Position numbers and translations under genes: made by a program. A stretch of DNA of 64,000 bases from Macrostomum lignano (Eukaryota), in assembly GCA_002269645.1 (NCBI GenBank), contig NIVC01000645.1, positions 62,001 through 126,000 of the forward strand, in the 5' to 3' direction. Shown here piece after piece: positions 1-32,834 of the stretch. The first letter of the stretch is position 1. Each line of letters opens with the position of its first letter. The notes below the pieces were generated by a model, which searched no databases, was not told where the DNA came from, and saw nothing but the letters and a program-made list of their open reading frames with translations.

Positions 1-459
<459 letters not shown>

Positions 460-3000: not shown

Positions 3001-3049
3001 GGGATTGTGTCAAAGACACAGCTGAAAGATCAATAATGAAGCTTACTCA

Positions 3050-3658
<609 letters not shown>

Positions 3659-3759
3659 TTATTGTGGTTCGATTGCATCTACTGGTGGGCTCTTTGACCT
3701 GCACTCCGACCTCCCGACTACACATGCTGCTTCTGACGCCATTCAGGCTTTGTCGCCAG

Positions 3760-4260
3760 ACTATCACTCTTTGGCGCCACTCATCACCCTTTGGCGCCAC
3801 ACTATCACTCTTTGGCGCCACTCATCACCCTTTGGCGCCACACTATCACTCTTTGGCGCCACTCATCACCCTTTGGCGCCACTCATCACGCTTTGGCGCC
3901 AAATTATTATCCTTTGGCGCCACCCTATCCCCATTTGGCCCCACCCTATCCCCAGTTGGCGCCACTCATCACGCTTTGGCGCCAAATTATTATCCTTTGG
4001 CGCCACCCTATCCCCATTTGGCGCCACCCTATCCCCATTTGGCGCCACCCTATCCCCAGTTGGCGCCACCCTATCCCCAGTTGGCGCCACCGTATCCTCA
4101 GTTGGTGCCACTCTATCCCAATTTGGCGCCACCCTATTCTCAGTTGGCGCCACCCTATCCCCAGTTGGCGCCACCCTATCCCTATTTGGCGCCAACCTAT
4201 CCCTATTTGGCGCCACCCTATCCCTATTTGGCGCCACCCTATCCCCAATTGGCGCCACCT
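3760..4260. repeat. 21-bp intronic minisatellite
   Basis: Unit TGGCGCCACCCTATCCCCATT and variants. Confidence 0.95.
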
Positions 4261-4268
4261 CATTATTA

Positions 4269-5195
<927 letters not shown>

Positions 5196-5269
5196 TTAAA
5201 AATGCAGAACGCTAGTAAAAAATCCTAAAAATGAAGGTGTTGATGACAAAAAGTAGCCAAGTTGCTTAC

Positions 5270-5362
5270 CAAAGGTGGTCAGCTGTTTCAGATAGACGCA
5301 CGGTTTCTCCTCTTGAGCGTACAAGTCGATGCGGTTGTAGTGCAGGTCGTCCACACTTGGCA
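5270..5362 (-). CDS. CACHD1: CACHD1-like protein, exon 8
   Basis: cacag|TG...TTTG|GTAAG; [14 protein letters not shown]...CVYLKQLTT. Confidence 0.82.
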
Positions 5363-5514
5363 CTGTGGTAACAGGTTTTGTGGGGTTAGCACACATATTG
5401 CACCATTGCAATCGATATAGGCTAAATGGAAACCCAGTTATGACTTTTAGAACCGGAACTTAGAGTTTTAGGAATTTTATTTAAGGAATTATCGAGCCCG
5501 AGATACACAGTCTA

Positions 5515-6720
<1,206 letters not shown>

Positions 6721-6760
6721 AAATATGGGGTCAATAAATGACTGCTCATCGGGGACTCAC

Positions 6761-7037
6761 TTCACGTGAACGGGAATCGACGCGCTGATGACCAGGCCGG
6801 TGCCCTCCAGGTCCTGGCTGGGCAGGCTGAACTGCACCTCCGACTCCTGCACAGGCGGGAACACTTCGTAGAAACGGCTCACCCGGTCCATGCCGGGTCC
6901 TGACTCGGAGCTGATCACCACAGCGTGGCCCGGCTTCACCTCGAGTGCTGTGGAATCGGCCGACTCGCAGGAGCCGCCACCGCCTCCGGCTGCCAGCTGG
7001 CTCATGAAGGTCTTCTCGAACATGCTCTGGCTCTGGC
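6761..7037 (-). CDS. CACHD1: CACHD1-like protein, exon 6
   Basis: ctcgcag|GC gives [16 protein letters not shown]...FSLP...[11 protein letters not shown]. Donor AA|GTGAG, phase 2. Confidence 0.8.
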
Positions 7038-7071
7038 CTGCGAGATTGCGGAGGTGGTGACCGATCCAATC

Positions 7072-8036
<965 letters not shown>

Positions 8037-8090
8037 TCAATTAAAAAGCTGCAGTGCTGCAATAAAAAAGACAGGCACTGAATAGCTTAC

Positions 8091-8180
8091 AGTTCCTCAG
8101 CTGCTCAGCAGAACTGCCCCGAAATGTGTCTTGAATTATGTTGAAGGCCTCCTGCAGCGCTTTGGAGTGATTGCACACAT
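8091..8180 (-). CDS. CACHD1: CACHD1-like protein, exon 4
   Basis: ttttcag|AT...AACT|GTAAG; 90 nt; DVCNHSKALQEAFNIIQDTF. Not in the ORF track because it is short. Confidence 0.8.
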
Positions 8181-8224
8181 CTGAAAATGATGGGGCAGTA
8201 TTGTCTGCATCAGTATTGTGTCTG

Positions 8225-8815
8225 CGTCCTTCTCATGTTGTGTCTGCCGCATTCTGGTCTTGTGGGTCTGCATCATTCTGGTCTTGTGTCTGCCGCATTC
8301 TGGTCTTGTGGGTCTGCATCATTCTGGTCTTGTGTCTGCCGCATTCTGGTCTTGTGGGTCTGCATCATTCTGGTCTTGTGTCTGCCGCATTCTGGTCTTG
8401 TGGATCTGCATCAATCTGGTCTTGTGGGTCTGCATCATTCTGGTCTTGTGGGTCTGCATCATTCTGGTTCTGTGGGTCTGCATCATTCTGGTCTTGTGGG
8501 TCTGCATCATTCTGGTTCTGTGGGTCTGCATCATTCTGGTCTTGTGAGTCTGCATCATTCTGGTCTTGTGGGTCTGCATCATTCTGGTCTTGTGGGTCTG
8601 CATCATTCTGGTTCTGTGGGTCTGCATCATTCTGGTCTTGTGAGTCTGCATCATTCTGGTCTTGTGGGTCTGCATCATTCTGGTCTTGTGGGTCTGCATC
8701 ATTCTGGTCTTGTGGGTCTGCATCATTCTGGTCTTGTGTCTGCCGCATTCTGGTCTTGTGGGTCTGCATCATTCTGGTCTTATATCCGCCGCATTCTGGT
8801 CTTGTGTCTGCATTC
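8225..8815. repeat. 24-bp intronic minisatellite
   Basis: Unit GCATCATTCTGGTCTTGTGGGTCT. Confidence 0.96.
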
Positions 8816-8922
8816 TGCACCCTTCATTTGGTCCTTTGTCCCGGAGCCTTAATTTCCTAATTTCACGCCCCAAGTGTCAGCAAAAGTACAAATGAAGAGT
8901 TCACGTGCACTGAATGACTCGC

Positions 8923-9224
8923 CTTTATCCTGTCTGCGCACGCCTCTATCAAGAAAGTGCGCCAGGCCAGCCTTGGCCTCGTGAGTCACGGGGAACATAG
9001 TGGGGCCGCCGGTCTCGTCGCTGGCAGCCGGCGGGTACTGGATGGTGCCGGCCGCGGCAAACAGGGCCAGGCGGTCTTTCTCGCTCAGACTGTCCACAAG
9101 AGCTCGGGCCACCAGCAGGCCGAGGCGGAAGTCGCGAGCGCTCATCTGGCCGCTGTCGAGCACCAGCACCAGGTGCATCGGGCGCGGATGAACGGAGCGC
9201 ACGTACACGTCCCGGTGGCGAACT
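8923..9224 (-). CDS. CACHD1: CACHD1-like protein, exon 3 (VWA domain start)
   Basis: [25 protein letters not shown]...[10 protein letters not shown] is VWA-like. Phase 2 in. Probable GC donor AAAG|GCGAGT, phase 1. Confidence 0.85.
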
Positions 9225-9444
9225 CTGGCGCAGTTAATTCAGTCAGTTTTGTTCTGTTTTAGATACATTTACAGTAAATATGCTGCCTACACTACTCATT
9301 CTTAGTGAGTAGTTTAATTAAGATTTTACAGATAGTAAATGCGGTTTTATTGCTTTTCTAATTGATAATAAATCATGTTTGTTCTACACGCCTGATGAAA
9401 TATTAATTGAGTCGTACCAATTAAAAGTCTAAAGGGCACACATT

Positions 9445-9810
9445 TATCTAATTCCCTGATCAGGAATCTACGAGCGTATCTAATTCCCTACCCTAATCGG
9501 GGATATATAATTCCCTAATTTGGCATCTACCTAATTCCCTAATCGGGCATCCATCTAATTCCCTAATCGGGTATCTATCTAATTCCTTAATCGGGCTTCT
9601 ATCTTATTCCCTAATCGGGTATCTGTCTTATTCCCTAATAAGACATATATCTAATTCCCTAATAAGACATCTAATTCCCTAATCGGGCATCTATCTAATT
9701 CTCTAATCGGGCATCAATCGAATTCCTTAATCGGGCTTCTATCTTGTTCCCTAATCGGGTATCTATCTAATTGCCTAATCGGGCATCTAATTCCCTAATT
9801 GAGAATTTAT
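9445..9810. repeat. ~25-bp degenerate intronic minisatellite
   Basis: Recurring CTAATTCCCTAATCGGG. Confidence 0.9.
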
Positions 9811-9887
9811 CTAATATCCCTAATGGAGCTACGAACTCTATTCAAAGCAATCGCGCATCTCCCAAACTCAAAAGCGACAGAACTCAC

Positions 9888-10336
9888 CTGTGCATAGCGG
9901 AGCACGGAATCCGGCTCCGCTTGAAATTATGCGAGGGAAACTCGGTGTGCAGCCCCTCGGCAGAGATGAAGTACTGCCACTTGATGCTGGACCAATACTT
10001 CATGTACTGGTCGAGCATCTTGGTGAACTTCCTGCCCGGATTAAACACGTTAGGGCCCAGCCTAGGTGGTATCAGGTCACATGAGGTCTGCCTGGACACC
10101 GCGGCGCCGTAGGTGGGCACATAGGTGAGGTCGGAGTTGGCCAGGTTGCAGCAGTCCAGCCTGGGGCTCATCCGCTGCTTCTTGTGCAAACCGTAGTACA
10201 GTACAATGGGCCTCAGCAACTGTTTTAATATGCCTTTAATTGGCGATAACCGCAGAGAGAGTGAAGCCGCAAGAGAGCGGGCGTCCTCCATGCCGTTGCT
10301 CTCGAACGGCGTGTAGGCCTGCTTGTCATAGATGGC
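9888..10336 (-). CDS. CACHD1: CACHD1-like protein, exon 2
   Basis: cag|GCCATC acceptor. Encodes DCCNL and IKWQYFISAEGLHTEFP, resembling the CACHD1 N-terminal region. Donor AG|GTGAG, phase 2. Confidence 0.88.
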
Positions 10337-10872: not shown

Positions 10873-11057
10873 AGAATTTATGATACAGATAGTACTCAAT
10901 TGAGCTTAATAACAATTCTTACCAGATTAGACTTTTTAATTAACAATATACTTAGTCTTGACCTAAACACTGCAGTGAGTCATTTCTGAAGTAATTAACT
11001 AACTGGAGATTAAAACTGGATTGCTGATATACTAAAAAAATCTCACTAAAATCTCAC

Positions 11058-11339
11058 CTGCATAGCAACTATGCCCAACTCATCCTTGGCGGTTGTTTCC
11101 AGCTGCTGTCTGAGCCGGTGAGCCTCCTTGTTGAGGTCGACTCCGCCAAAGTATTTGCGATTCACGGCGCCAGTACCATTGGTTGGAGGAGTTCCAGCGC
11201 TGCCAGCTGCTTTCTCCTCTGGGCTCAGCAGGTGCGGATTGTTGAAGTGCACCTGATCATTGCTGACTGAGGCGCAATGGCATGCTAAGCTGAGTAGCAG
11301 CTGCAGCAACAGCAGCGGCAGCAGGGACAATTGCATCAT
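11058..11339 (-). CDS. CACHD1: CACHD1-like protein, exon 1 (signal peptide)
   Basis: ATG at 11339. MMQLSLLPLLLLQLLLSLACHCAS is a signal-peptide-like start. Ends CAG|GTGAG, phase 0. Confidence 0.8.
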
Positions 11340-11393
11340 CAATTGCGCTGGAAATCCATCAGTTTTATTTTTAGTTCGTTCTGATCCTCCATT

Positions 11394-11426
11394 CTGATTG
11401 GCCATATAACTTTACAGTGATTGGCT
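11394..11426 (-). promoter_or_regulatory. Two CCAAT (NF-Y-type) boxes upstream of the CACHD1 start
   Basis: AGCCAATCA and GGCCAATCAG on the minus strand, 23 bp apart, 57-85 bp upstream of the ATG. Confidence 0.4.
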
Positions 11427-12588: not shown

Positions 12589-14479
12589 ATATAAATAATA
12601 TAATAATGCTTTAACTCATGGTGGCCATGTCAATAAAGCCTACATAGTGCTACTAACTATGTCATTCAATATTGAATGGGTTTATACTTAGACATAGAAG
12701 ATGGCTGTGTCTTTACTATAGAATCTTTTTGACATTGGTGATGATGACAGTCTCCTTATTATAAAAAATTAAGCAACATACATGTGTGCTTAACATTATG
12801 CATATAGCAGACATGCCTATAAGTACTAAATTAAATTTTAGGGTTTTCTATCAACTGGCAAATGAAACACTTTTAGGTACCAGATAAAAAGCAGATATGG
12901 ATGCGGATATAGAATGGATGCAGTGGATAATACAGAAATCAAAGATAAAATGCGGAATATGGAAATATAAGGTAAAATGCAGATGGCAGAAACGGATGTG
13001 GATGTAGAATGGATATACTGGTTAAAATGTGGATGAAGAGCAGCGGAAATGAATAACCCAGAATTGGTAATGGCTAAAAAATTAAACTCCTAACCAATAC
13101 CTGAAATTACATATGTATCTTTAGACTATTATATATCTAATGTAAGGTATCTATAGTTACTGATTTATTTTATTTAAAGTAGTTCATAGTATCTTCTATT
13201 GTTATAATGTACTATTTCCTATAAAATTTAAATGTTTAAGCTGCCACTCTCTGGACCTGATTGAGCTTTCGAGTTTTGTAATGAAATAAAGTTGAAGGCT
13301 GCCGTTTGAATTGTAGCTAATCAAGACTCAAGAACGAACATGCTGAAGCAGCATAAACACTTGCACTATTAATTTAATATTGTATTATATATGGAACAGT
13401 GGTGTGGCCTTTGTTTACGCCCAGGCTCTGAAGTGTGCTGCATGCCCTGTGATGCTACTTTTTTCCACCTGACAGCGTATTTTGTTGTTGTTGTTGTTAT
13501 ATATAGAAAATAATATACTTTAAAAAGTTTATTACAATACATAGCAATTAAATACATTAAAGAGTAAACACAAAGCTAGTAAAATGTCACACAAATAATA
13601 GTAAGCAACATTATAACAGATAGAATAAATACAAAAAGAGGTATGCATGCAAATGCAATAGTATTACTATTACTTTTTAAAACTAGATCTCTCTCAAACA
13701 AATATAATTCTGTAAATGATTGGTAATAGTAACAAAGATTCTTCAGAACTTAAATATTATTGTAAAAAGCTTTATAAATTTAAGTTTTGTTACTAAAAAG
13801 CACCATTTCTTTATTTGAGGCCTTATTTTATGCAAGTATTAAGCCATTGTCTAGAAAAGAGGGTCTCTATGTGCCAGACTAATCTGGCATAGTCACAAAT
13901 TTTGATAGTTTAGATTGGCATGCATGTGCCATGTTGGTATACTATACAATTTGCATGCATTTGTGGCACACAATCATAACATAAATAATAAAAGAGACAA
14001 TCTAATTTATATTGCAATAATGATATGATTCATAGTAAATGTTTCTTTAACTTTATTTTTATATAAATCATTTATTTTTAGTTATATTATAATAGGTATG
14101 AACTAAACTACAAAAACAGATATGGATACTGAATATGTTGTTTACTAAGATGTAGATATGGATATGGATTACTATTTGTGGAATCAATGGAGATATAAAA
14201 TAACAGATTAAGAAAATCTCTAGATTTAGTTTTATTATAATATGGATATATATTCTGCTTTATTTTTGTTTCTGTTTAGGCCTTATTTTCAGATAAATTG
14301 TTCTCATTTAAATTTATTATAAAATAATAATATAAAATAATTTTTGGTTTTTAGAATGTCATACATTTATTGCCATATGCTCCTCACTACCTTCACAATA
14401 GGAACCGCTTGCTTTGTGCAATTTTTTCACAACAGTGTTAGAGGACATTAGTGTGTACTTTTGAACTAGAGCAGCAAAC

Positions 14480-15900: not shown

Positions 15901-17224
15901 TTCCCATATTTATCGTTTCCTTCTGCCAACAGTTCAGGAAGACAACGAACAATGGACCTCGATGGTAACTTTCTCTGTGTGATCTCTAGAGTCACATTCT
16001 CAAACTTCAGGCAAGGATCTTTCCTCTTCAATCAGTATATTTTATAAGCTAGCACACTGTACGCGAGCAACGAGGAATAGGAGCAGTAGGGAGAGAGAGT
16101 GGGATTTTGAGGCCCAATAGGCAGTGTTGGTCAGAGGTTGTGCATGCATCACGCGAGGGTCGCATGGCTAGGCTTCTTGCTCGCCGATCATCAGGACTAT
16201 CTTTAGGCATGCAGATCTTGTGCATCTGGGGAGTTGCTGCCAAGGCTGGATTCTTGTTCACGCATCACATGCGTGTCGGCTGATTTCTCCCATCCTCTTG
16301 CTAATGGCGCCTTGGTTTCACTTCACCCTATTGAAAACTAATAATCTATTGAGCACATTGGTACATCTATTCTCCTGCTGAGCCTGCCTATGCATAATAT
16401 GCTAGTCCTGATCCTACCTTTGCTGCAACCATCATAGTCGCTGTGAGACTATTTTAAATCGGCTACTGGAATGAGGAAGGAGACAGCTAAGACTTTGAGC
16501 TCTAAGTGAGTTCCTAGGCCCATTCAGTCTGAAGGCCTATTTTGACAGTTCTCATGGTTATGTAAGCGAGTTTGCATGACATGGTGCAGCATTTGCTAGC
16601 ACGCATTCCTGCTCAGCTATATTACCCAATTTGATTCTGCCTGCTGGTCACCTGCCTATCCCTCCTAGCATGAGGACCTTAGCCACTCGCTATATACTTA
16701 GCTAGCTAGGGCTGGCACGCATGCAGTATGCTCATAGGAGTGGCCAAGTGGCGGCCTGAATGCTTATATAGATGGAGATCAACATTCAGAGGATACATGT
16801 AGAAGTAGAGCTAGAATAGCAATAAAGGCCAAATTAACTATAGATGCTAAAAAGTCAGCGCTTATTCTTTGGACCGACCCCCTGTGGAATGTTTCTATTT
16901 TTGCAGTCTGCTGTTCATCCACATTTTAACTAGTATATCCATTCTGAATCTACATCCATTTCTGCCATCTACATTTTACCTTCTATTTCCGTATTCCAGG
17001 TTTTATCCACTGCATCTGGTCCATATTTGCGTCTATTTCTGCATTGTATCCAGTACCACATTTTCATGGTAGATAACCAAACCAATGAATCTATATGTTG
17101 CAGATAACTGCTTTAAGCAACCTACCTATCAGCTCTTGAATCTAGATAAGTCTATAGATATAAGGTTGGGTTTGCAATTAACCTTATTTCTAAATTTTAA
17201 TTTATATATTTTAGGTTATATTAC

Positions 17225-18861: not shown

Positions 18862-20073
18862 TATATTACATATTACTATAGGCCCCCTATGCCTTATATA
18901 AAGCAAGCATGGCTCTATCAAAGTATTTCTATCTAAAGAGTTTTATCTGGCATATTAGAAAAAAGCAGGTGGCAAATGTCAAGCATGCTATTGAATAAAA
19001 TATTGCCCTAGCAAGGATATACTATACAATACAATGTCTCATGAGCTGCCTAATTATACTTGCAATATCCATACATTTCACTACACCTTTTCACACCTTT
19101 TTATATTCAATTTTGTCTTTTGATCAAAATCCAGTTCTAATAAAACTAGACAAAATTAAATTAAGACAATTCAGACTGGGGACAATTTTGTTTATGGCTA
19201 TAAACCTTGCTTAGATGGCAGAATGTTTTGAACTGGTTTGTTTTTTTATTGATTTTTTGTAAGCATTGCCCTAGCTAGTGGCCTAGTCTAAATTGTCTAA
19301 ATTGAATTTCCATTAGTTTTTTAGAACTGGACTTTGATCAAAATTGAACGTGAAAAGGTGTAATCAATAGTCTAATATAAATATAATAAGAAAAAAGTAT
19401 TACTTTTAAGCTAGACCTATTATATTTCTTTCTTGCATATATATCATACTAACTACTCATATAGAGGATATTAAAATAAGAAATCAAATATTAATTAAAT
19501 ATAATGCTATGATAAGGTAAATTGTTTAGGCTATGGCTAATGCCAATGGCTTTTAAGAAATAGTTCAAAACTTAAAGTCAAGGTTTATTGATACTATTTA
19601 TATTTATACCATATAAATTATAATAAGCACAAAAGATGACTAGGCTATCCTGCAAAATCGTTCGTTAAGTTCACTGTATGCACATTTTTTAGCTATTGAC
19701 ATGAAACTTTCCAAAAATGAATACTTTAATTATGCCAATATTTTAGAAGTGTCCATATTTGTTAGTTCAAGGGCTGGGCGAAACTCTTGAGGTGGCACAA
19801 TCTACATGTTGGGGCAGAAGGTTGTCCGCCAGCCATTTTTAATTAGAAAGCACTTTATTCGCCTATTACAAAAATTAAAAATGTGTACACCTATATTCTA
19901 CCTATCTAAAAATACAAATTAGCCATACTACCAGGCAAAGTTGTTCTCTGCAAGCTAACCCCCACCCCCCACCACCCTTGAATAGAGGGCGAAATAATTC
20001 CGGAAATAATTAAACGAACGAAAGAGGAAGATTGCCGCAAGCTATTCAGTATAAATTAATAGCTAGATATATT

Positions 20074-21031
20074 TGAGGTGGGGGTGGAGAAGAATTTTCT
20101 TGGAAACTCTCGGTTTCAAAAATTTGCTGACACCAGTGAGGAGGGGCGGATTCCTCGTTTTAATTGCCGCCTGCGTTGTAGAAGCACGAATAAAGCCGGA
20201 AAAATGCACAAATTGATGCGTTGATTCTTCTCCTAGGTTACTCCGTCTGCCGGGTCCTCAATTCCGGGGGGAGGGTAGTCGTAATCGCAGTCGAGCGGTC
20301 TAGTAGCGGCCCGGGTCGTTCAAATTAGGTCCTCAGACACCGAAAAAATTATAGTTTGTCGAAATTGCTAGATGTGTTACTCTCAGTAGTAAAGTAGCGC
20401 TGCCACCACCGTAAATGTCGTTTTACGGAACGTTGAGGGTCTCAGAGCTTTCTTTGAGTTGAGACTGACTGGTTATTTTACGCCCCGCGGGCAAATGACT
20501 CAATAGAAACTAAAGGCTTCGATTCTGAACGACCGTATGAATAATATTAATATTTGGCGAACTTTATTAATTATGGTTGCGTTATTATTATTGTTATCAT
20601 TACTTATTGTTACTACGCGAGATGATCAGAGACAGGAACAGAAGAAAAGGCGAAATTAAGAACTAAAACTAACTAAACTAAAACAAACAGTAAAACAACA
20701 CGCACTAATGACTCCAGAGAAAAATTCAAATAAATATCATTTTGGCGGGAAGGATCCCAGGGGTGGGACGGAGGATGGGACAAGGGAAGGGACAACGAAG
20801 GGAAAAAGGAAAACCCGGCCGCTGGAAACATTAAAACAACAGGGGCCAAGGGAGGGAACAGAAAAGGGAACAGACGAGGGAGCAAGGGCGGGAACAACCG
20901 GGGGGACAAACCAGGGAACAAAAGTTGAAAAAAATGACGTCAATCCGTCCGTGGAACTGGGTGGAATGTCCCGCCGGTGTTCGCGCTAGAGGCCTGCCGT
21001 CGTTCTCCCAGTGGTAGACCGGCCTACCACA
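20074..21031 (-). repeat. 3' LTR
   Basis: Direct repeat of 29209-30166 (offset 9135). One mismatch seen (20161 T vs 29296 G). Confidence 0.97.
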
Positions 21032-21209
21032 GGCGCGGGGCGCCGGGGCGAACGGCAGCAGACAGACGAACTCCCGGACGTCTCAGTGGCGGCGGTCCTG
21101 CTTCGCCGGCCGGCCTCGGCGAGCAGGGGCGTTCGGATCTGACGGCGGCGAGCTTGCGACGCGTGCCTGATGGCTCAGCTGGAGATTGAGCAGCTGCAGG
21201 CGCTGCCCG

Positions 21210-21650
21210 TCAAAAAAAGAGCCGCTCCGGGCGCCTCTCGATGGCGACCTCCCAGAAGTGGCGAACTTCGGGCAGCCATCCGCTCTGGAGGTGGCCCGCC
21301 TCCCAGTACGCCAGAACAATGAATAAGGCGAGGGCAGGCCGAGGCCGTCCGCCTTCGCGGAAGCAGGTATCAGCGCGCCGCAGCGTTTCATCGAGAAGCT
21401 CCCGCGTGGTCGTGGGCGGCATCTCGCGGCAGAGTGTCCGCCATGGGGCGTCCACTTGAACGCGGCCCTTGTCGGCCGCCTGGTGGTAGGCCTCGTTGAG
21501 CGCGCGGCGAAGCTGTTCACGGGCCGGGGCCGCACCGCTCGGGGCATAAGCCAAGGCTCGCAAGGTGTCTGACTCGCTCGACGATAGCCAGGGCGCTTGC
21601 AAAAGGAGGTCCGGCGAGGCACCAGCGCTGTCGGTCCCGTTGTTTGCCAT
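21210..21650 (-). CDS. Additional ORF of the gypsy element (146 aa, unknown function)
   Basis: GC-rich ORF in the same sense as gag-pol, with TATTTAA ~100 bp upstream. Helical-looking sequence; no recognisable family. Confidence 0.6.
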   Translation of the reverse strand: MANNGTDSAGASPDLLLQAPWLSSSESDTLRALAYAPSGAAPAREQLRRALNEAYHQAADKGRVQVDAPWRTLCREMPPTTTRELLDETLRRADTCFREGGRPRPALALFIVLAYWEAGHLQSGWLPEVRHFWEVAIERRPERLFF

Positions 21651-21745
21651 ATTCGAAGCGGCGGAGCGTGATGCGACAGTCCGAAATATTCAGTCGGCAG
21701 GTCGGATCAACAGAATTGGAGAAAAATAAAATTGAAGATGGCTCC

Positions 21746-21752
21746 TTAAATA
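21746..21752 (-). promoter_or_regulatory. TATA-like box for the additional ORF
   Basis: CCCTATTTAAGG on the minus strand. Confidence 0.35.
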
Positions 21753-22449
21753 GGGCGCAAAATATTCCAACTGGTGGAATTCCAAACCAACCAGAGGAAA
21801 TAAAATTCAACCACTGGAATTGAGCCATCACCCCCCCGTGCACTCTAAGGTGGCACACAGAGTTGGGGTGGGCGCATGAATCAAGGAGTCATAAAATAGA
21901 TAACCGCGCGGCAGGGGTCCGAAATTAGAATGAATGAATGGGGGCGCCTCACACGGCTCACAAAACAGGTTGGCGGTTAGAGAGAGGGGGGGGGCTGAAC
22001 AATCGCATAAACAGTAGTTTAGAAAATAGTAAGAACATAGGTAGTTCCTAAAAATTAGAATAGCAGATAGATACAGGCATAGTGACCGAGTTAGAATTTG
22101 GATCTCCATAAGGAGTTACACAAAACGGCAAAAGGCACTGGGAGGGGGCTGGACAGGCGCCCTTACAAATTTTCCCAGGCTCGGCTCGGTCAGAACAAAG
22201 AAAATGGGGGCCGTTCACCTCAGATGCCCTCCGCTGAGGACAAGGCCTAGAGCCAGGGTGGCTAGACCTGAGCGGGGCAAACGACTGGGACACCAGAGCA
22301 ACATTGGCTTGCAAAATTAAAAGATACCTTCAGCCACAAGCAAGGACTGCAAGGTTTACAACTGAAATAAAACTTCGCAAGTTAATGACACGCAATTGAG
22401 CAAAATTAATGAATCGCATGCGGATAAATAATTGTCGCGTAGGTGCTGG

Positions 22450-23045
22450 CTTTTCCCATCAAGCCTAAGGCTAAATATCAAAACGCAGAAGTGCGGGTCG
22501 CGTTGAATAAATATGACACCAATTGAGCATGAGCACAATGTACAAAGGCTTTTGACCGGAAAGCGTAAGGAGCAGAAATTGAAAAAAATAGTTGCTTTTG
22601 CCCTCAAGCATAAGGAAAGTACAGAAAATTTAATTGCTTTTACCCTCAAGCATAAGGAAGGTACAGAAAATTAGTTGCTTTTGCCCTCAAGCATAAGGAA
22701 AGTACAGAAAATTAATTGCTTTTGCCCTCAAGCATAAGGAAAGGTACAGAAAATTTAGTTGCTTTTATCCCTCAAGCATAAGGAAAAATGAAAATTAATT
22801 GCTTTTGCCCTCAAGCATAAGGAAAGGTACAGAAAATTAGTTGCAAAACTAACGCTTGCTTTTATCCCAAAAGCATAAGGAGAACAAAATTACAGCAAAT
22901 TTGACGCCTGCTTTTATCCCGAAAGCATAAGGAGAAATGAAAATTACAGCAAATTTGACGCCTGCTTTTATCCCGAAAGCATAAGGAGAAATGAAAATTA
23001 CAGCAAATTTGACGCCTGCTTTTATCCCGAAAGCATAAGGAGAAC
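22450..23045. repeat. Tandem array inside the gypsy element, between pol and the extra ORF
   Basis: About 12 copies of core GCTTTT-N5-7-AAGCATAAGG, in ~41-bp units then ~54-bp units. Confidence 0.9.
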
Positions 23046-23209
23046 AAAATTTGAAGGAATATTGAAAGTTGCTTTCAGCACAGAAAAGGTGCAGAGAAAG
23101 CTTACAGCGAAATTTAATTCAGAACGCGTTCACAAACTTAACTACTCGTAGTAATGCGCAACGGTAATTTAGCTATTAGGCGCAATAATAAATCGCTGGT
23201 AATTACCTT

Positions 23210-26200
23210 TTAGAGCTCCATCTCCATGCCGATGTCAGGCAAGTCCGGGTCGCCTTCGGCGAGCACCTCCGGGTGGCGCAAGCTGGGCTCGAACAGCTGA
23301 CTGCCTCGCAGGTCAGGCTGAACTGTGGCCGGCTGCTCTGGCGCGGGCTGATCGGCTGGGTCGACTTCGCTGTCTTCGCTCGACTCATAGGGCAGCATTG
23401 GCCGCTCTGTCTGGCGCGGCGGCTCCTGTGGTCGATCTGCCATCATCTGCGGCACCTTGATGATGTTGTTACGATGAACTAGCATTTCAGCTGGGCGTCC
23501 TCGGCGGGCTGTCGCTGGCTTGATCCAATACGCCACTTCTCCGACTTTCCTGACGACCTTGTACATACTCTTGTACGGCCGGTGGAACTTGGGCAGCTCT
23601 CCCAGTTCGAGCTTCGGGTTGGCCAGGCAGACCAAGTCTCCGGGCTGCAGCTCCACGGGCTTTGGCCGGTTCTCGTAGTACTCCTCTCGGCGCTGGATCT
23701 CGGTTCTCAGTCGCTGTCGCACAATTCGTTCTGTCTCGGCCAGTCTGCGCTGATGTTTGGCAATGTACTCCGGGAGGTCAGCTGATACATCCAGTCGGTC
23801 TAGGGTGTTATCGATCGGATACCGGTAGGGCACTCCGTAGATGACATAATGCGGCGAGAACCCGGTTGTACGATTGACTGCTGATCTTAGAGCTGTTAAA
23901 GCGGCTGGCAACATCTTGTCCCATTGCTGATGGTCTTCTAGGAGACAGGTGAGCACCTTCTTGATGTTCTTATTGCACGACTCAGCTTGTCCATTGGCCC
24001 ATGGCGAATACGGCGGCGTCGTGGTCTGCCGGATGCCGTAAACTTCGCAGAAGTGCCGGAACTCGTGTCCTGTGAACTGTTTCCCTTGATCGGAGTGAAT
24101 CCATGCCGGGATTCCGGTGATTGGAAACACTTGTTCCTGCAGGAGCGTTATAATGGTCTTGGCCCGCTGATTCTTCATGGCGAAAGCGAAGGGGTATTTC
24201 GACGTAGTGTCGACGTAGGTCAAGATGTACTTGTTTCCTCGGTCCGTCGGGTCTCCAGTGGGGCCCAGGATGTCGATCGCACATCGCCCATAGATTTCAC
24301 AGACCGGAAACGATTGTACATGCGCCGGAATTCGTCGCCGTCCTTTGCTCTGAGTGCAGGTCTGGCAGGAAGCGACATAGTCGGACACTGCCTTGGCCAG
24401 GGCAGGTCGCCAGAACCTTTCGCGCACCTTCGCGATGGTGAGGTCTCGGCCCATGTGTCCGCAGTAGGGTGAACCGTGGAGGTCGGCGAACACCGTTGCG
24501 TCGAGGCTCTTCGGCAGGACGATCCGCGCCGTTTCCTCCTCGCCAAAATCGTCGAAATGAATTACCAGTAGTCCATCGTCTCGGACTTCGAGCTGCTCGT
24601 AGAACGCTAGTAGGTTTCGTTCGTCTCGCGTCATATTCAAACGCTGATTCAGCGGCGGCTTCGGCTGTCGGCTTTCCAAAAGATTGATCATCATGGCGAT
24701 GGCAGAGTCAGCACGCTGATGAGTCTGGAGCTCCTCACGAGTGACTGGCCTCGGGATGTGATCAGTTAGATTCAATGTTGGGCGTCGGTTAGTTAAATTA
24801 GTCGGCGCGGCTTCGGCTGTGGCGGCATGGTTCGGGGTCTGGAGCTCCCTCTGCACGATCGCTACTCTGGCCGGTTGCCGGGTCGTTGATGTGCCCGAAG
24901 ATCGATCCTCGTCGGTAGCTTCGGCGTCACTGTTGTTGGATTCAGATCGGTCAGCAGTTGATGATGAGTCAGCAGAGCTGTCCGCGTCGCTGCTGAATCT
25001 CACCTTCTTCTCAAACTTCGGGCAGCGAGCGAGTTGGCAGCTGTCCTCTCTGGCTGCGCTGTGGTCGCTGTCCGTGCCGTCTCCAGCTAGTAGTCGGCGG
25101 CTCCTTGACGGGCAACATGTCGTGCTACTAAAACTGGTAGGCGACCTCTGCGAGTCATCGTAACGGCTGGCTGATGGCCTCGGCTTCGTCGCCGGCGGGT
25201 GCAGCTCTGTCAGCGGCTTGCTGTCGGCTGTCGGTGTTGCTGGCGGCGTAGCCTCGCCGTTGGACTCCTTCGGCTTAGTCGGCGGTTTCCGTCGCTTACG
25301 GCGGGTCGACGGCTTCTTGCTCGGTGGAGGACTAGGGTGGCTGCTGTCGTGGACCTTCGGCGCCGCTGCGCCAGTTATCGCGGCTGGCTGCTTACTTTGG
25401 TCCTCATCAGCTGCCTCGCGCTGAGCCTCCTCCAAGCATTCGGCGTCGTCCTCCGGCCGTCTCGAGAGACCGTCGGCGTTTTGATGCTGACTCGATTTGC
25501 GATGCTGGATCTCGAACTCAAATTCACTTAGCCGCTGTAGCCATCGTCCAAAGATGCCTACTTGTTGAGTTCGCCGGAGAATCCAGGTCAACGCTGCATG
25601 GTCGGTTCGACAAATGAACTTCTTGGCCAGCAGGTAGAAGCGGAAATGTCGCATGCCATCTACGACTGCCAAGAGTTCTTGCTTAGTAATCGGATATCGG
25701 GCTTCAGCCGGTTTAAGTCGTCGGGAGAAATAGCCAATTGGGCGCTCGATCCCGTCAGCTTGGCGTTGGCTCAGGCAGGCTCCGATTCTGGTCGCAGAAG
25801 CATCCGTGTCCAGGATAAACATTACTTCCGGATCCTCGCTGAACTGCGGATACGCGAGCACTGATGTCGAAGTCATGGCTGCTTTGAGCTGATCGAACGC
25901 GTCTTGCTGGGCTTTTCCCCATAGACAATTGAAATTTCTAATCTTCTTTTCCTTGATCAAGTCGTGGAGCGGAGCTGCAAGTTCTGCATAGCCAGGTACA
26001 AATTTTGCATAGTAAGCGCACGTGCAGACAAAACTTTTAAGTTGTCGAGCTGTTCTCGGTCTTGGCCAGGTCTGAATAGCCTCGATCTTCGCCGGATCGG
26101 TCTTGATTCCGTCCTTAGTAACTACATGTCCCAGATAGTTTAGACTTGCCCGAAATAAATGGCACTTCCTGCCTTTGAACTTTAAGTTGGCCTCTTGAAT

Positions 26201-26293
26201 TCGCTTAAATACTTCCTCCATATGCTGTAGATGGTCATTAAATTTCTTAGAATAGACGATTACGTCATCCAGATAGGCTATTGCACTTTTATA
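23210..26293 (-). CDS. pol: Pol part 2: RT C-terminus, RNase H, integrase
   Basis: AYLDDVIVYS upstream in frame with ORF 23210-26221; TDAS/ELLAV/TDH/NADGLSR RNase H; HHCC zinc finger; IDILGP, HSDQG and NGQAE catalytic motifs. Confidence 0.93.
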   Translation of the reverse strand, partial: YKSAIAYLDDVIVYSKKFNDHLQHMEEVFKRIQEANLKFKGRKCHLFRASLNYLGHVVTKDGIKTDPAKIEAIQTWPRPRTARQLKSFVCTCAYYAKFVPGYAELAAPLHDLIKEKKIRNFNCLWGKAQQDAFDQLKAAMTSTSVLAYPQFSEDPEVMFILDTDASATRIGACLSQRQADGIERPIGYFSRRLKPAEARYPITKQELLAVVDGMRHFRFYLLAKKFICRTDHAALTWILRRTQQVGIFGRWLQRLSEFEFEIQHRKSSQHQNADGLSRRPEDDAECLEEAQREAADEDQSKQPAAITGAAAPKVHDSSHPSPPPSKKPSTRRKRRKPPTKPKESNGEATPPATPTADSKPLTELHPPATKPRPSASRYDDSQRSPTSFSSTTCCPSRSRRLLAGDGTDSDHSAAREDSCQLARCPKFEKKVRFSSDADSSADSSSTADRSESNNSDAEATDEDRSSGTSTTRQPARVAIVQRELQTPNHAATAEAAPTNLTNRRPTLNLTDHIPRPVTREELQTHQRADSAIAMMINLLESRQPKPPLNQRLNMTRDERNLLAFYEQLEVRDDGLLVIHFDDFGEEETARIVLPKSLDATVFADLHGSPYCGHMGRDLTIAKVRERFWRPALAKAVSDYVASCQTCTQSKGRRRIPAHVQSFPVCEIYGRCAIDILGPTGDPTDRGNKYILTYVDTTSKYPFAFAMKNQRAKTIITLLQEQVFPITGIPAWIHSDQGKQFTGHEFRHFCEVYGIRQTTTPPYSPWANGQAESCNKNIKKVLTCLLEDHQQWDKMLPAALTALRSAVNRTTGFSPHYVIYGVPYRYPIDNTLDRLDVSADLPEYIAKHQRRLAETERIVRQRLRTEIQRREEYYENRPKPVELQPGDLVCLANPKLELGELPKFHRPYKSMYKVVRKVGEVAYWIKPATARRGRPAEMLVHRNNIIKVPQMMADRPQEPPRQTERPMLPYESSEDSEVDPADQPAPEQPATVQPDLRGSQLFEPSLRHPEVLAEGDPDLPDIGMEMEL

Positions 26294-27801
26294 TAGGCGA
26301 TTCCGTTGAGCACAGCGTTCATGAGGCGCATGAAGCTGGCTGGCGCCGAACTTAATCCCATAGGCATCACATTGTAGGCGAATTGTCCGCGGTGCAGCGT
26401 GGCGAAGGCCGTCAGATCTTGATCCTCTGGACGCAGTGGAATCTGATAGTAGCCGCTGTTCAAGTCGAACGTGCTGAATAGCTGGCTTCCTTCGAGGCTA
26501 GCGAACGCTTCCTGGATGTTCGGTATCGGGTACGGAAAGTACTCGCACTTTTGGTTCAGACTCCTGAAGTCTTGTACAATTCTCAGGCTGCCGTCCTTCT
26601 TCGGGATGATCACCAGCGGGGTGTTGTAGCTGGAGAAACTCGGTCTAATCACGCCTTTGGCAAGCAGATCGTCAAGCAGCTGGTCCACCTTGGGCAGCAA
26701 ATGCGGCGGAATCCTTCGGGTCGGCAGATGTACAGGATCCTTGTCCTTCAACACGATGTTGTGGGTGACCAGGTGGGTTCGGCCGAGATCGTGTGGCCCC
26801 TGTGAGAAGATGGTCTTGTACTTCTTCAATAGCTCGATGACTTGAGCGTGCTGGTCATTGGACAAGTCCTCGCCGATGTCGATCTCTTTGATCCAAGCGT
26901 CTGGATCTTCGTCTTGAACTTGATTAACTGAAGCTTCTGGCTTCGGCAGCGGAAAGAATTGTAACTCGGGCAGTCTGATTGGTCTAGCAATCCCAACTAG
27001 GGCATTCGCTCGCACTTTGATGGAAGTAGTGCCTCGATTGATCATCTCAATGGCGCCTTCTCCATTGGCCATAGATATTAGGGCAGGCGCGGCGTCCAGT
27101 TGCTGCACATCTTCTTCACGCCGGGCCGGTTTTAGCGGCTCGATCACAGCGGGTGTGCCCTGGTTTTCTTCTCGTCCTTTTGCTAGTTTAATCTTGATTC
27201 GGGCTGATGATAACGGCGGCACGGTTGTGCTCTCAGCTGTGTAGATTCTGCACGTGGTAGCTTCGGTTCGCGTATAGCGCAGTGGTGCGGCGGTGCCATC
27301 CTTGAAAAACAGCATCCCGGCGGCGAGATCCAGTGATGTACTGTACTTCTCCAGGAACTCGAAGCCCAGGATGTTGTCATGAGATCCCTTCGCTAGCAGG
27401 AACTTGACTGTAGGCTCGAAACTCCCAATTTTAACTTTGATTGATAGTTGGCCTGCCATTTGAATAGGCTCTCCATTGTAGGTCACAATGCGTTGCAGGC
27501 AGGGCTCGATTTGGCCACGCAGGGTCGGGTCATCGGTACATAGTCGGTGCCAGGTGCTGAATCCTAGGACTTCGCACTTGGAGCCGGTGTCAAGCAGAAA
27601 AGCAAAATAACGGCCCTGAATCTCACCAGTTAGAAACGGATCCCTTCGGGGTCGCTTGGGTGCAGAGTTATGTACAGGTGCAGCGGAGGCGGTCTCAGCA
27701 GTGGCCTGCTGAGCGACTAAAGTCCTCGGCGGGGACCTTAGTGCTGGCTCGGCTGCTGGATGGCGCTGCCCCCGTTGGCGCGTCCAGCCGTCCCGTTTCC
27801 C
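26278..27801 (-). CDS. pol: Pol part 1: protease and N-terminal RT (entered by -1 frameshift)
   Basis: FLLDTGS protease motif; LRIVQDFRSLN, FDLNSGYYQIPL, MPMGLSSAPASF. Frame breaks just before YLDD. Confidence 0.92.
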   Translation of the reverse strand, partial: GKRDGWTRQRGQRHPAAEPALRSPPRTLVAQQATAETASAAPVHNSAPKRPRRDPFLTGEIQGRYFAFLLDTGSKCEVLGFSTWHRLCTDDPTLRGQIEPCLQRIVTYNGEPIQMAGQLSIKVKIGSFEPTVKFLLAKGSHDNILGFEFLEKYSTSLDLAAGMLFFKDGTAAPLRYTRTEATTCRIYTAESTTVPPLSSARIKIKLAKGREENQGTPAVIEPLKPARREEDVQQLDAAPALISMANGEGAIEMINRGTTSIKVRANALVGIARPIRLPELQFFPLPKPEASVNQVQDEDPDAWIKEIDIGEDLSNDQHAQVIELLKKYKTIFSQGPHDLGRTHLVTHNIVLKDKDPVHLPTRRIPPHLLPKVDQLLDDLLAKGVIRPSFSSYNTPLVIIPKKDGSLRIVQDFRSLNQKCEYFPYPIPNIQEAFASLEGSQLFSTFDLNSGYYQIPLRPEDQDLTAFATLHRGQFAYNVMPMGLSSAPASFMRLMNAVLNGIAYIKVQ

Positions 27802-29141
27802 GAGCTGCCGTTGCGCTGGGGCGCGGCGCTGGCCGACCGCCGGTGCGGGCACTCATCGGCGCGGTGCTCGCGATTGCACCTGTAACACATAGCGCTCTGT
27901 CGCCGCAGCTGATAGGGCGGCGGGCGTGAACCCGACTGTTGCTGCCGCTGCGGCTGCTGCTGCTGCTGCTGTCGACGTTGACCTCCTACTGGCGGCGTCC
28001 TTGGCGGCGGGTTGCTGCCGTCTCGTGGTTGCTGAAGTCGATGGAACTGCTCGTGCTGCACAATCCGTGTGCCGGGTGTCTTGAATTGGGCGCTCTCATC
28101 TGCGCTGCGGCGAGGAGTCGAGGGCACCAAACATCTGTTGCGTTGGCCCCAAGAGTCCTGCGGCTGGTGGCGAGCAGATTCCCAATGCTCCTGGGTGTCG
28201 TTATTGCGCGATCCCAGCGAGTGGAACTCTCGCAGCTCATTGCTCAAAGCTTCTAATAGACGTCGCTGCTCTTGCAGTGTCTCAGTTTGCTGTTCCATCA
28301 CTTCACGCAACCAATTCTCCTCGGGCCGAGATGACTTGTCGTGTTGCACTCCAGTTGGTGACTGACCATCGTCATCCTCGAGGACCCGGACATGTCTCGC
28401 TGCTGGCGGCGGTGCTACCCTCTGAGCCAGGCTAGCTGCTGTCTCCAGGCGTAGCACAGCCCTTCTCGCTGCGGTCAGATTCTGCGGTCGCACCAGGATT
28501 AGCTGTTCTCTGGCTGACTGGGCAATTCGCACTCCCACGGTGAACTGGTCCACTAGTTCGGCCTGCTTCTGAACCGGGGTGAAGTGCGGAAATGCTCTAT
28601 CGGCCAGAGCAATTAATCGATCACCGTAGTCGTCGACACTCTCATTCTTGCCTTGCTGGCAGCATCGGAATTGCTCCCGGTACTCCAGCGTGTCGGCCAC
28701 GTGGGTGAAGCGCTCGGACAGTCTTTGCTTGAATTCGCCAAACGTCAGATTGTCCGGCAGTTCCATCCTGACGACTGCGGGATAGGTTGTGGCGATGTCC
28801 AAATTCACTAGGACTTCCGCCTTCTTACGTCTGTCGTCCACGATCCCGTTGAGTTCGCAACGCTCCTCGAGAGCCTGGATCCAGACGTCAAAGTCCTGGT
28901 TCGGGGTGTACCGCTGAATCTTGACCGGTTTCGGCGCCGGAGCTCGGTCAGGCTGTTGGGGCGGCTGATACACGTGGTGATGGTGCTGCGGCTGTCCCAG
29001 GTTGGCCTGCTCCAGTCGCCGTCTCACCTCTTCGGTCACTGCTCGAATCATCTCGTCGTAGGTCGGCCTAGTAGTTGAGTTGTCGGGGCCCGCGGCGTCG
29101 GCTGTCGAATCCGCGGCCGTTGAGTTAGTTGTCGAAGCCAT
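27738..29141 (-). CDS. gag: Gag (467 aa)
   Basis: Capsid-like region (FDVWIQALEERCELNGI...QGKNESVDDYGDRL) and zinc knuckle CYRCNREHRADEC (CX2CX3HX4C). Confidence 0.92.
   Translation of the reverse strand: MASTTNSTAADSTADAAGPDNSTTRPTYDEMIRAVTEEVRRRLEQANLGQPQHHHHVYQPPQQPDRAPAPKPVKIQRYTPNQDFDVWIQALEERCELNGIVDDRRKKAEVLVNLDIATTYPAVVRMELPDNLTFGEFKQRLSERFTHVADTLEYREQFRCCQQGKNESVDDYGDRLIALADRAFPHFTPVQKQAELVDQFTVGVRIAQSAREQLILVRPQNLTAARRAVLRLETAASLAQRVAPPPAARHVRVLEDDDGQSPTGVQHDKSSRPEENWLREVMEQQTETLQEQRRLLEALSNELREFHSLGSRNNDTQEHWESARHQPQDSWGQRNRCLVPSTPRRSADESAQFKTPGTRIVQHEQFHRLQQPRDGSNPPPRTPPVGGQRRQQQQQQPQRQQQSGSRPPPYQLRRQSAMCYRCNREHRADECPHRRSASAAPQRNGSSGNGTAGRANGGSAIQQPSQH
27795..27801 (-). other. 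-1 programmed ribosomal frameshift site
   Basis: G GGA AAC in the gag frame, followed after 6 nt by a GCTGGA...TCCAGC stem. The -1 frame is the pol ORF. Confidence 0.85.
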
Positions 29142-29187
29142 GACGTAAATTTTGAACGACTCGTTGAAAGGATTTCGGCGTTTCGTT

Positions 29188-29207
29188 ATCCCACTTAGCT
29201 GACACCA
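29188..29207 (-). other. Primer binding site, tRNA-Leu-like
   Basis: TGGTGTCAGCTAAGTGGGAT 1 nt after the 5' LTR. The canonical tRNA-Leu(CAG/CAA) complement is TGGTGTCAGAAGTGGGAT. Confidence 0.85.
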
Positions 29208-29208
29208 A

Positions 29209-30166
29209 TGAGGTGGGGGTGGAGAAGAATTTTCTTGGAAACTCTCGGTTTCAAAAATTTGCTGACACCAGTGAGGAGGGGCGGATTCCTCGTTTGAATT
29301 GCCGCCTGCGTTGTAGAAGCACGAATAAAGCCGGAAAAATGCACAAATTGATGCGTTGATTCTTCTCCTAGGTTACTCCGTCTGCCGGGTCCTCAATTCC
29401 GGGGGGAGGGTAGTCGTAATCGCAGTCGAGCGGTCTAGTAGCGGCCCGGGTCGTTCAAATTAGGTCCTCAGACACCGAAAAAATTATAGTTTGTCGAAAT
29501 TGCTAGATGTGTTACTCTCAGTAGTAAAGTAGCGCTGCCACCACCGTAAATGTCGTTTTACGGAACGTTGAGGGTCTCAGAGCTTTCTTTGAGTTGAGAC
29601 TGACTGGTTATTTTACGCCCCGCGGGCAAATGACTCAATAGAAACTAAAGGCTTCGATTCTGAACGACCGTATGAATAATATTAATATTTGGCGAACTTT
29701 ATTAATTATGGTTGCGTTATTATTATTGTTATCATTACTTATTGTTACTACGCGAGATGATCAGAGACAGGAACAGAAGAAAAGGCGAAATTAAGAACTA
29801 AAACTAACTAAACTAAAACAAACAGTAAAACAACACGCACTAATGACTCCAGAGAAAAATTCAAATAAATATCATTTTGGCGGGAAGGATCCCAGGGGTG
29901 GGACGGAGGATGGGACAAGGGAAGGGACAACGAAGGGAAAAAGGAAAACCCGGCCGCTGGAAACATTAAAACAACAGGGGCCAAGGGAGGGAACAGAAAA
30001 GGGAACAGACGAGGGAGCAAGGGCGGGAACAACCGGGGGGACAAACCAGGGAACAAAAGTTGAAAAAAATGACGTCAATCCGTCCGTGGAACTGGGTGGA
30101 ATGTCCCGCCGGTGTTCGCGCTAGAGGCCTGCCGTCGTTCTCCCAGTGGTAGACCGGCCTACCACA
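29209..30166 (-). repeat. 5' LTR
   Basis: Followed on the minus strand by the PBS and gag. Confidence 0.97.
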
Positions 30167-32834
30167 TATTCTAGCAATTAGAACAGTTTTTTGTGAGACT
30201 TTAAATGAATTTTTTAACTAAACTCATTATAACGTCAGTTTTAACTAAAAATACAAATTTTCTTTTGGCTATTTAACCGCGTCTATTTTCTAAAACAAGA
30301 GTTTTGTACTTTGTTTTACTAAGTAATAGTTAAATTCACGGTATATCGGAGTAACGACATAAGTCAATGAACTCACATCGGTCACGCCATACTTTTCTAA
30401 CCCAACGGCAGTATAATGACGAAGAAAATTGGTTGAGCCATTTTTGCTAAAATCGATCACATATCTGCCGACAGACCAGTTTTAGTATATAGACGTCAGT
30501 TTTAGTATATTGATTAGTTAAATAGAGATATGCAGATGATCGACTTAGGAACATACCGAGTCCGAGTGTAACTAGGCCTAATCATACCATGCTGCCATGC
30601 ACAATAAATGAGATAGGTGTATTAGATGCAGTACTTTTAGTGATTTTAGTTCAGACCTACCTTGCTCAAAGATGAAAATGAAATCATCTTACTCTGCATG
30701 AAACAGTCCAACAGACAGACGATGTATGATAATTTATATCCTCTAGTAAAATATTTAATAATGACTTTGACTTATAATAGCTGTAATGCATCTTTATCTT
30801 GCTAATTATTGAGGCTCTAACTTGTCTAAGGATAACTAAAGCAATTACATATTGCCTTTTTAGGCAATCTCCTAGAATCCTAGTTAATTTGTTGCATTAT
30901 ATTTTTTTCATTTTTTAAACTTCAAAATTAGCTTTACAAGCTATGTAGCTATACTTTTAGTTTTCTTTTTAAAAAGTTGTTTCCTCTGCTGGCAGATAAA
31001 AAGGTGGTGAACAAAATGACTATGCACCCTCTGCAATGGCTAGAAGGCCTAAAGTGAATGTTAACCAGTGGCAACTACAATCATAATTGTCCTTGAAGTC
31101 AACCTAAGGCCAATTTATTGCCAAGCTTATTAATAATGATGTCAACCTATTGAGTTTGCTAGCCTACTAATGGGTAATGGCCAATGAGATGTCAATGTCA
31201 ATAAATAACTACTTTAATGAAGATCCATAAAGCCACTTGTTTCTATAAGTATAAAAGGTCTTTTGAAAATTCTTGTTATACTAAGTAGCTTACTATTACT
31301 ATTAGGGTCTATTTATATTATATTATTAATTTATCTAATACTTATAATAATATCATAATATGCCCATACAGCCTACTACTTGTAGGCTTATTTTGCCTTT
31401 TCCTATTATTTCTATGTAAAAGAAATTTAATGTAGTGCTGCAGATTGCCACTTTTTATAGATAGGCCTAGAATCGCTAGATATTATGTCTTAAAAAGTAA
31501 GGGACCTAAAGAAAACAAAAATCCACTTCTCCTTTAATCCTAGTCTTAGGTTATAGATTTTGCATTTACTAGACCTTGGCTTATTTAATGACTTATTTGA
31601 TGATTTTGATAATTGGGCCTATTTCTACCTATAAAAGTCAAAACTCTATCTGTGTATGTACAAATTACTTTGCTATAGACTTTCAAATTGCTTAACCAAA
31701 TCCCACCAAATTTTGCACCCACCCTAAATTCATTATAGAAAATGTCATAGGCTATGGCCTACTTTAAAATTTCCTAAATTTGAGTCTTCCTACCTAAAAG
31801 TACAAAAAACTGCTTAAAATGTGCAATTTTTTACTAAATCTGCCATCGCGCCACTCCATTTCTACCAATGCTCTTCAAATTTGACACAATCAATCTTCAA
31901 CTATTTTGACACAATTGTGTAAAATTTCAAGTTTTAAAGTTAATCCTGAAAGGTGCTATGCACTTTTAAAGTTAGGCTATTTTTTTCAGCAAGGCAGCCA
32001 CCCCAACCTCTGCCCGCCTGTCTCTCTTTCCCAATCTGGGCAAAAAGTGTGAATAGGTTTTAAAATGCCTAACTTTTGGCTACTCTATTTTTGCTCCACG
32101 TGAAGCAATTGACTTCAAATTTGACACAATTCTTTATTGACTCATTCTCTACAAAATTCTCTGACATGTAAAGTCTCAAATCTGTATCTCAATCAGGATA
32201 GAAACTATAAGCATGTGAAGTTTGTCTGCTTTTTCTGTCATTTGTACTACTCACTCACTCATTCCCCCAGCCCAGACAAAGGGTTAGGTAATAGGGATCA
32301 ATGTACATAGTAAATCTACAGTGTTTTGGAATAACATTTTAATAGCCTTCTCCACACCTTGCGCATGGAGAGGCTACATTTAGCCATGACAGTTTAGCAA
32401 AAGATTCAAACCAGTGTCCTCTGTACCTGTATAGACAAGTCTGCAGCAGTTTAACAGTGGATAGCAAATCAAGGCGATGTAAGATGGTTTGTAAAAATAG
32501 CAAAAAATTAATGAATAACTGATTAGTAGTGTTTACTATGCAATCCTACTAAATTAGTTATACCATGAAAATTTTAACATTCAGATTCACATAAAGTATT
32601 TTAAAACTTAAATGGCTTCTAAAAATATGTATTTCCTTGGTTGTTAGACTGCTGCAGAGTGGTGGTGGAGCTAGGCTAGAGGGAGATACATAAATTCCTC
32701 TCAGGGCTGCTAATTGGCCAGAAATATGATGTGATTAAAGCATAACAACCATGAGAGTAGTATTTCCCACAAATGCTTTTGAAGCAAGGATTGGCAGACT
32801 TTAACCTCAAATGCCAAATAAAGAATCAAGCTCA

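Follow-up and report, generated by a model that had tools for sequence, protein, structure and literature searches.

We analysed a 64,000-nucleotide (nt) stretch of the Macrostomum lignano genome (assembly GCA_002269645.1, contig NIVC01000645.1, positions 62,001 to 126,000; hereafter the window), in which a complete long terminal repeat (LTR) retrotransposon of the Ty3/Gypsy superfamily lies on the minus strand at 20074-30166. Besides gag and pol, this element carries an accessory open reading frame (ORF) in sense orientation, with its ATG at 21650 and its stop at 21212-21210. The ORF encodes 146 amino acids (aa) and begins 1,560 nt beyond the pol stop (23210), outside both gag and pol. Its GC content is 67%, compared with 37-48% in the spacer, in agreement with an earlier reading made from the letters alone (the sequence-only reading), which had placed a 146-codon sense ORF, whose quoted peptides we recovered, in a GC-rich island about 1.5 kb past pol. 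GC at third codon positions (GC3) was 0.755, against 0.61-0.64 in gag and pol, and the observed/expected CpG ratio was 1.08, against 0.99-1.01 in gag and pol and 0.54 in the one host-like exon measured.

Length by itself says little about this ORF, given that an ATG-initiated frame of at least 146 aa arose in 138 of 2,000 shuffles; its standing as a gene follows from the existence of homologues. When 1,835,955,588 representatives were searched without an index, exactly two proteins matched (E 4e-40 and 5e-38), each 56% identical over about 128 residues and each named as an M. lignano hypothetical protein. These homologues, labelled P0001 and P0002 here, are Mlig013834g1 (291 aa) and Mlig017912g1/g3 (233 aa, with g4 a 238-aa variant), and the family accessions are PAA63198.1/PAA86120.1 and PAA73306.1. 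Additional searches added no further family members. Over 126 aligned sites, each homologue retains all five tryptophans (about 0.02 expected under neutrality), and the substitutions are more conservative than neutral evolution to an equal identity would give (z 2.9-3.7) in a test that uses protein sequences alone, is distinct from the ratio of nonsynonymous to synonymous rates (dN/dS) and does not assign change to a branch. With two homologues, codon-level conservation and no Pfam family, the proposal of an unknown accessory gene held up: the ORF is very probably a real, selected accessory gene, and its protein family appears undescribed in our literature searches.

Two further observations concern the homologues. 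In P0003 (UniRef A0A1I8I3Q9), a gene model of 1,217 aa, the P0001 domain is fused to CHMP2A (Snf7) and to unrelated sequence; the model is probably a chimeric prediction, but it sets a member of the family immediately upstream of a host gene of endosomal sorting complex required for transport III (ESCRT-III). P0001 also holds an extra stretch of about 100 residues (165-268) that the other members lack, and an internal repeat within that stretch was not supported.

The frame in the window ends at a 7-base homopolymer run (21212-21218), beyond which both homologues carry on. Of the three frames immediately following the run, one aligns to the next 8 residues of the homologues with a score of 37, and the others give 2 and -17. 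No shuffle in 20,000 reached this anchored score, which ranks first of 156 positions; the two-residue offset used for P0001 in this test was picked after inspecting the data. The second frame has a 6-residue word in common with the P0001 tail and continues as a basic stretch to 21083, while plain BLASTP of the tail frame against P0002 gave no alignment. A basic tail with RG dipeptides ends all three proteins. The 146-aa end is a frame break, not the native length, and the 146-aa product of the sequence-only reading would be a protein cut off before its last predicted strand and basic tail. The break is either a mutation or a homopolymer assembly error. In contigs of sister copies, aligned for 4 of the 24 runs listed, no indel at this run appeared among the best 12 of 225 indel entries, and one contig crossing it (run X18) has a single unplaced gap.

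AlphaFold modelling of P0002 from a 4-row alignment predicted a domain of about 130 residues, with six helices and a beta-hairpin forming a small sheet, after which comes an arginine-rich tail predicted to be disordered. The predicted local distance difference test (pLDDT) was 83-94 per 10-residue block over residues 41-150; the strands at 163-174 coincide with the position of the frame break, where block means drop from 77 to 56. Fold searches found no clear match for the predicted domain, and Pfam returned no family at E 1 for the ORF, P0001, P0002 or P0004, including no GDSL or DEDDy domain. Peak 19-residue hydropathy was 1.05 in the ORF and 1.39 and 1.60 in the two homologues, transmembrane and signal segments being assessed by this hydropathy scan and not by a dedicated predictor. 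The N-termini of all three proteins are polar, none of the three has a furin motif (R-x-K/R-R) or a glycine at position 2, and N-glycosylation motifs number one in the ORF and zero in each homologue. The expectation of a helical, soluble product without an envelope (env) layout is consistent with this model of a relative and with the low hydropathy and missing furin site, and the match to a known env or other domain that would have told against novelty was not found by Pfam or fold searches.

Three candidate identities were discarded on these features. An env glycoprotein of the errantivirus F, gB or Tor type was rejected for want of a hydrophobic segment and a furin site. FAST-like small fusogens have an N-terminal glycine for myristoylation and one transmembrane segment; neither is present. 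A rotifer-type enzymatic ORF3 (GDSL, DEDDy) was rejected on the lack of a catalytic domain by Pfam profile. We also considered a six-helix Greek-key death fold, which the Trp/Leu pattern may suggest; it was not among the fold matches listed.

A TATTTAA motif lies 102 nt upstream of the ORF start, with no ATG in between. Between pol and the ORF there are 11 pyrimidine-rich AG sites, all more than 190 nt from the ATG; the closest, at 21846, is upstream of the TATA-like box, in line with the earlier statement that no clear splice acceptor is seen. The spacer between pol and the LTR was found, whole or in part, in 20 of the 24 runs, none of which is recorded as RNA. Against 21697-21866, the X16 contig showed no differences and 3 gaps over 170 nt, and against 21697-21812, the X18 contig showed 1 difference and 1 gap. 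The ORF core has diverged more, with 12 differences in 306 nt in X16 and 53 in 378 nt in X18, a run that bears another species label. All four aligned runs hold a variant in which 21569-21697 (the 5' untranslated region (UTR) and first 27 codons) is swapped for 130 other letters with the flanks kept, and in all four, variant ORF cores are joined to the same promoter stretch. Because this stretch is near-unchanged beside diverged cores, several versions of the gene share one promoter stretch.

Transcript evidence comes from a relative. The Mlig gene set was built from transcripts (PMC5730564). Mlig017912.g1 and.g4 carry the label neoblast-strict and a mapping to RNA1509_45341, and Mlig013834.g1 is labelled OvI_down (PMC7336406 supplement). 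RNA1509_45341 is 1,242 nt long and typed 5UTR_CDS_3UTR (PMC5173321 supplement). Its log fold change (logFC) after irradiation is -3.9/-4.9/-5.5 at 12/24/72 h, its level in G2/M cells exceeds that in G1 cells (logFC 1.8 to 3.3), and the stringent neoblast clusters, 357 in all, include it (PMC5173321). If it starts 30 nt behind the TATA-like box and ends shortly after the AATAAA of the 3' LTR, the message predicted for the element's gene is about 1,180 nt; its agreement in size with the 1,242-nt transcript of the relative fits an internal promoter without proving it. On balance, we think it somewhat probable that the accessory ORF has its own, putative, internal promoter.

Between pol and this promoter lies an inverted-repeat array (Table 1) whose GCTT-N7-9-AAGC core occurs nowhere else in the window. 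In the outermost copy, the flanking T..A pair is replaced by G..C (one case). Single units are able to form short hairpins, with two alternative ones in the 41-nt units. The array reads best as a row of candidate binding sites, on DNA or RNA, and adjacency is what links it to the ORF.

The carrier has the features of a Ty3/Gypsy element: paired TG..CA LTRs, a target-site duplication, a primer-binding site and a pol of protease, reverse transcriptase and RNase H followed by integrase (PR-RT-RNaseH-IN). The best solved relative of pol is Ty3 Gag-Pol (E 7.7e-63). The LTRs are identical at 957 of 958 nt, and the element is therefore a very young Gypsy insertion. In the window copy, pol is split across two frames near 26291, a point at which contigs from three of the four aligned runs are unlike the window. 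A GGGAAAC heptamer at 27795-27801, inside the gag/pol overlap, is likely a -1 frameshift site from gag into pol. No polypurine tract was found in the 40 nt preceding the 3' LTR (21032-21071), which are G/C- and pyrimidine-rich on the element strand; this absence is worth noting in so recently inserted an element. The LTR contains no three-unit heat-shock element.

Table 1. Features of the accessory gene and its carrier element (positions in the window).
Feature	Position	Strand	Description
5' LTR	29209..30166	-	958 nt; TGT...TCA ends
Primer-binding site	29188..29208	-	Adjoins 5' LTR directly; presumably of tRNA-Leu type
gag	27738..29141	-	Retrotrans_gag E 1.2e-4, short of curated cut-off
pol	23210..27852	-	Domain order PR-RT-RNaseH-IN (Pfam); frame shift near 26291
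Array	22445..23043	-	12 copies of GCTT-N7-9-AAGC core, in 41- and 54-nt units
Candidate internal promoter and 5' UTR	21651..21866	-	TATTTAA at 21752-21746; stretch kept in sister contigs
Accessory ORF	21210..21650	-	146 codons to frame break; predicted helical domain, 56% identity to two M. lignano proteins
Second frame	21083..21217	-	Behind run 21212-21218; colinear with homologues' last predicted strand, then basic tail
3' LTR	20074..21031	-	957/958 nt same as 5' LTR; AATAAA at 20568-20563
Target-site duplication	20070..20073; second copy 30167-30170	.	TATT, 4 bp

Sister contigs differ from the window in other parts of the element. Contigs of all four aligned runs depart from the LTR at 29638, and depth is greater on the inner part (29209-29638); it seems that families or variants have the inner 430 nt, on the U5 side, in common and that the outer part (29639-30166) is exchanged. 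RNase H is separated from the zinc finger of the integrase by a low-complexity Ser/Pro/Thr/basic spacer about 330 codons long (24700-25400; frame residues 327-661), in which sister contigs carry replacements. Over 21032-30166, the differences are mostly C>T and G>A in all four runs, an excess that fits methylation-driven decay of old copies; the CpG ratio of the window copy is still near 1.

Outside the element, 11046-11411 on the minus strand holds an exon with a signal-peptide-like stretch, and the element may be situated either upstream of this exon or inside an intron. We take the exon to resemble the start of CACHD1/alpha2delta-type proteins; it gave no Pfam or Protein Data Bank (PDB) match. 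Dense unrelated minisatellites with periods of about 20-45 nt fill 1-10000 and 33000-62700, along with a (CTAACC)n stretch (53462-53529) and a satellite of 23-nt period that spans 8.3 kb (54365-62699). Inverted arms about 3.9 kb apart (12876-13043 and 16908-17057; 88% over 100 nt) are possibly the remnant of a DNA transposon.

To account for the accessory gene, we tentatively propose that it is a conserved non-envelope third gene, frame-broken near its end, separately transcribed in stem cells and encoding a soluble protein that regulates the element in the nucleus. The message, about 1.2 kb long, would run from the TATA-like box to the poly(A) site of the 3' LTR and would be made in neoblasts from the element's internal promoter. 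As an adaptor, the helical domain would recruit a protein of either host or element, with the basic tail binding nucleic acid, the simplest target being the element's own 12-copy array. By analogy with CERV of Cer1, the outcome may be to promote the expression or nuclear export of full-length RNA in neoblasts. The nuclear location and the target are inferred, and we grade the parts separately: a role as nuclear regulator is plausible yet short of probable, and action through the array is unlikely. Somewhat less likely still is the fullest form, in which a neoblast-specific second promoter drives a regulator of undescribed fold that binds the palindromic array and licenses the element in pluripotent somatic stem cells, giving a germline route through regeneration with no need of an envelope. 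The roles offered by the sequence-only reading, an anti-silencing factor, a regulator binding the array and a captured gene, all stay candidates.

A number of points weigh against this proposal. The homologues are annotated as open frames, so their absence of stops is not independent evidence, and P0001 and P0002 are possibly host genes. Atlas recognition was 1670, below the level typical of known families, a score that is silent on whether a protein is real. The TATA-like box of the sequence-only reading is present and a promoter is plausible there, but a TATAWAW match with at most one mismatch occurred in 1,045 of 2,000 shuffles of the upstream 200 nt, which is chance level for the motif. 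Contig depth, which is not a copy number, was 57.5 over the ORF versus about 640-1750 over coding bins (X1). This suggests that most relatives at 82% identity or more lack this version of the ORF or carry a more diverged one, and that the gene is confined to some subfamilies or diverges faster than pol. The expression data are those of a relative, reached through the authors' ID mapping, from table rows only and with IDs assumed stable across annotation versions. Folded whole as RNA, the array shows no more stability than its shuffles do (z +1.33), our searches gave neither a fold nor a family that binds nucleic acid, and the basic tails of the proteins could not be aligned. Both the ORF and pol are broken in the window copy.

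Of the rival explanations, the main one, which we consider rather unlikely, holds that one Gypsy subfamily captured a host neoblast gene together with its promoter, Mlig017912 and Mlig013834 being cellular genes. It would suit the annotation of the homologues as stand-alone transcript-based genes, the P0003 model that runs from the family domain into host CHMP2A with no pol domain, the GC3 above that of gag and pol, and the contig depth over the ORF region, which is much under that over pol. Yet among 1.84 billion representatives, the family has no relative beyond M. lignano, the element's promoter stretch accompanies several diverged versions (one of them in the differently labelled X18), the CpG content of the ORF is element-like, and its divergence looks selected, though by a test blind to branch. 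It is improbable that the protein is instead a decoy or adaptor that mimics a helical domain of the CID/ENTH type and blunts host termination or silencing in stem cells with no binding to the array. CID/RPR and ENTH/ANTH domains gave 6-9% identity, no better than unrelated helical stacks, and none of the CID/ENTH-type domains checked has a counterpart of the small beta-sheet.

Quite improbable as well is a cytoplasmic, particle-associated factor, for RNA packaging or as a capsid partner, with its basic tail on genomic RNA. Solubility, the RG-containing tails and the capacity of array units to form small hairpins speak for such a role, but no zinc knuckle or capsid match was found, and a structural protein needs no separate short message. 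Position between pol and the 3' LTR, and nothing else, favours an env-like or FAST-like fusogen for cell-to-cell spread; the hydropathy maxima, the missing furin motif, the scarcity of N-glycosylation motifs, the lack of a glycine at position 2 and the globular helical model make it very improbable. We give equally little credence to a chance open frame in GC-rich DNA: the shuffles that yielded ORFs of this length and the chance-level TATA motif would allow it, whereas two homologues with codon-level conservation, a confident predicted fold and a transcribed relative argue against it.

Accessory genes of this kind have precedents. Additional sense ORFs that lie between pol and the 3' LTR and have no known function are described as aORF-3S in plants (PMC7264820) and as non-env ORF3s in bdelloid rotifers (PMC5408684). 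Our ORF resembles both in position, orientation, family-specific occurrence and unknown function; it differs in having no transmembrane, GDSL or DEDDy domain. Rotifer ORF3s typically come from spliced messages (PMC5408684), whereas an internal promoter fits our ORF better than splicing. CERV of the C. elegans element Cer1 is likewise a non-env accessory protein of an animal Gypsy element that is tied to expression in the cells passing the element on; it is made from a spliced mRNA and has a demonstrated role in RNA export (PMC10309623), whereas the role of our protein is argued by analogy. CERV was absent from the two matches of the 1.84-billion-representative search, and no direct comparison with it was made. 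In Oikopleura, Tor3b/4b elements express env from an internal promoter behind pol (PMC4402516). They share with our element a third gene in the space behind pol and an internal promoter, a candidate one in our case, but the Tor product is a furin-cleaved membrane glycoprotein and ours is predicted to be soluble. Of 137 curated M. lignano LTR families, 129 are Ty3/Mdg4 (PMC12801592), and our element likely has the same host and superfamily. Compared with Mlig-id38, it has an LTR of 958 nt instead of about 340 nt and no three-unit heat-shock element. Env-carrying elements of Platyhelminthes are arranged GAG-ENV-POL with a gB-type env (PMC13524379), a layout that differs from ours, where the accessory ORF lies behind pol. 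Non-env third ORFs are a known kind of thing; the family itself appears new.

LTR retrotransposons commonly carry such ORFs, hardly any of which has a known function. The host of this family is an animal with RNA interference and transgenesis, and one member of the family stands, unannotated, among the 357 stringent neoblast transcripts. If that member is a host gene, the element would have captured a stem-cell gene. If it is element-borne, a published stem-cell marker would be an accessory gene of a retrotransposon, and one knock-down could test the idea, raised in PMC12801592, of somatic stem cells as the way by which elements enter the flatworm germline.
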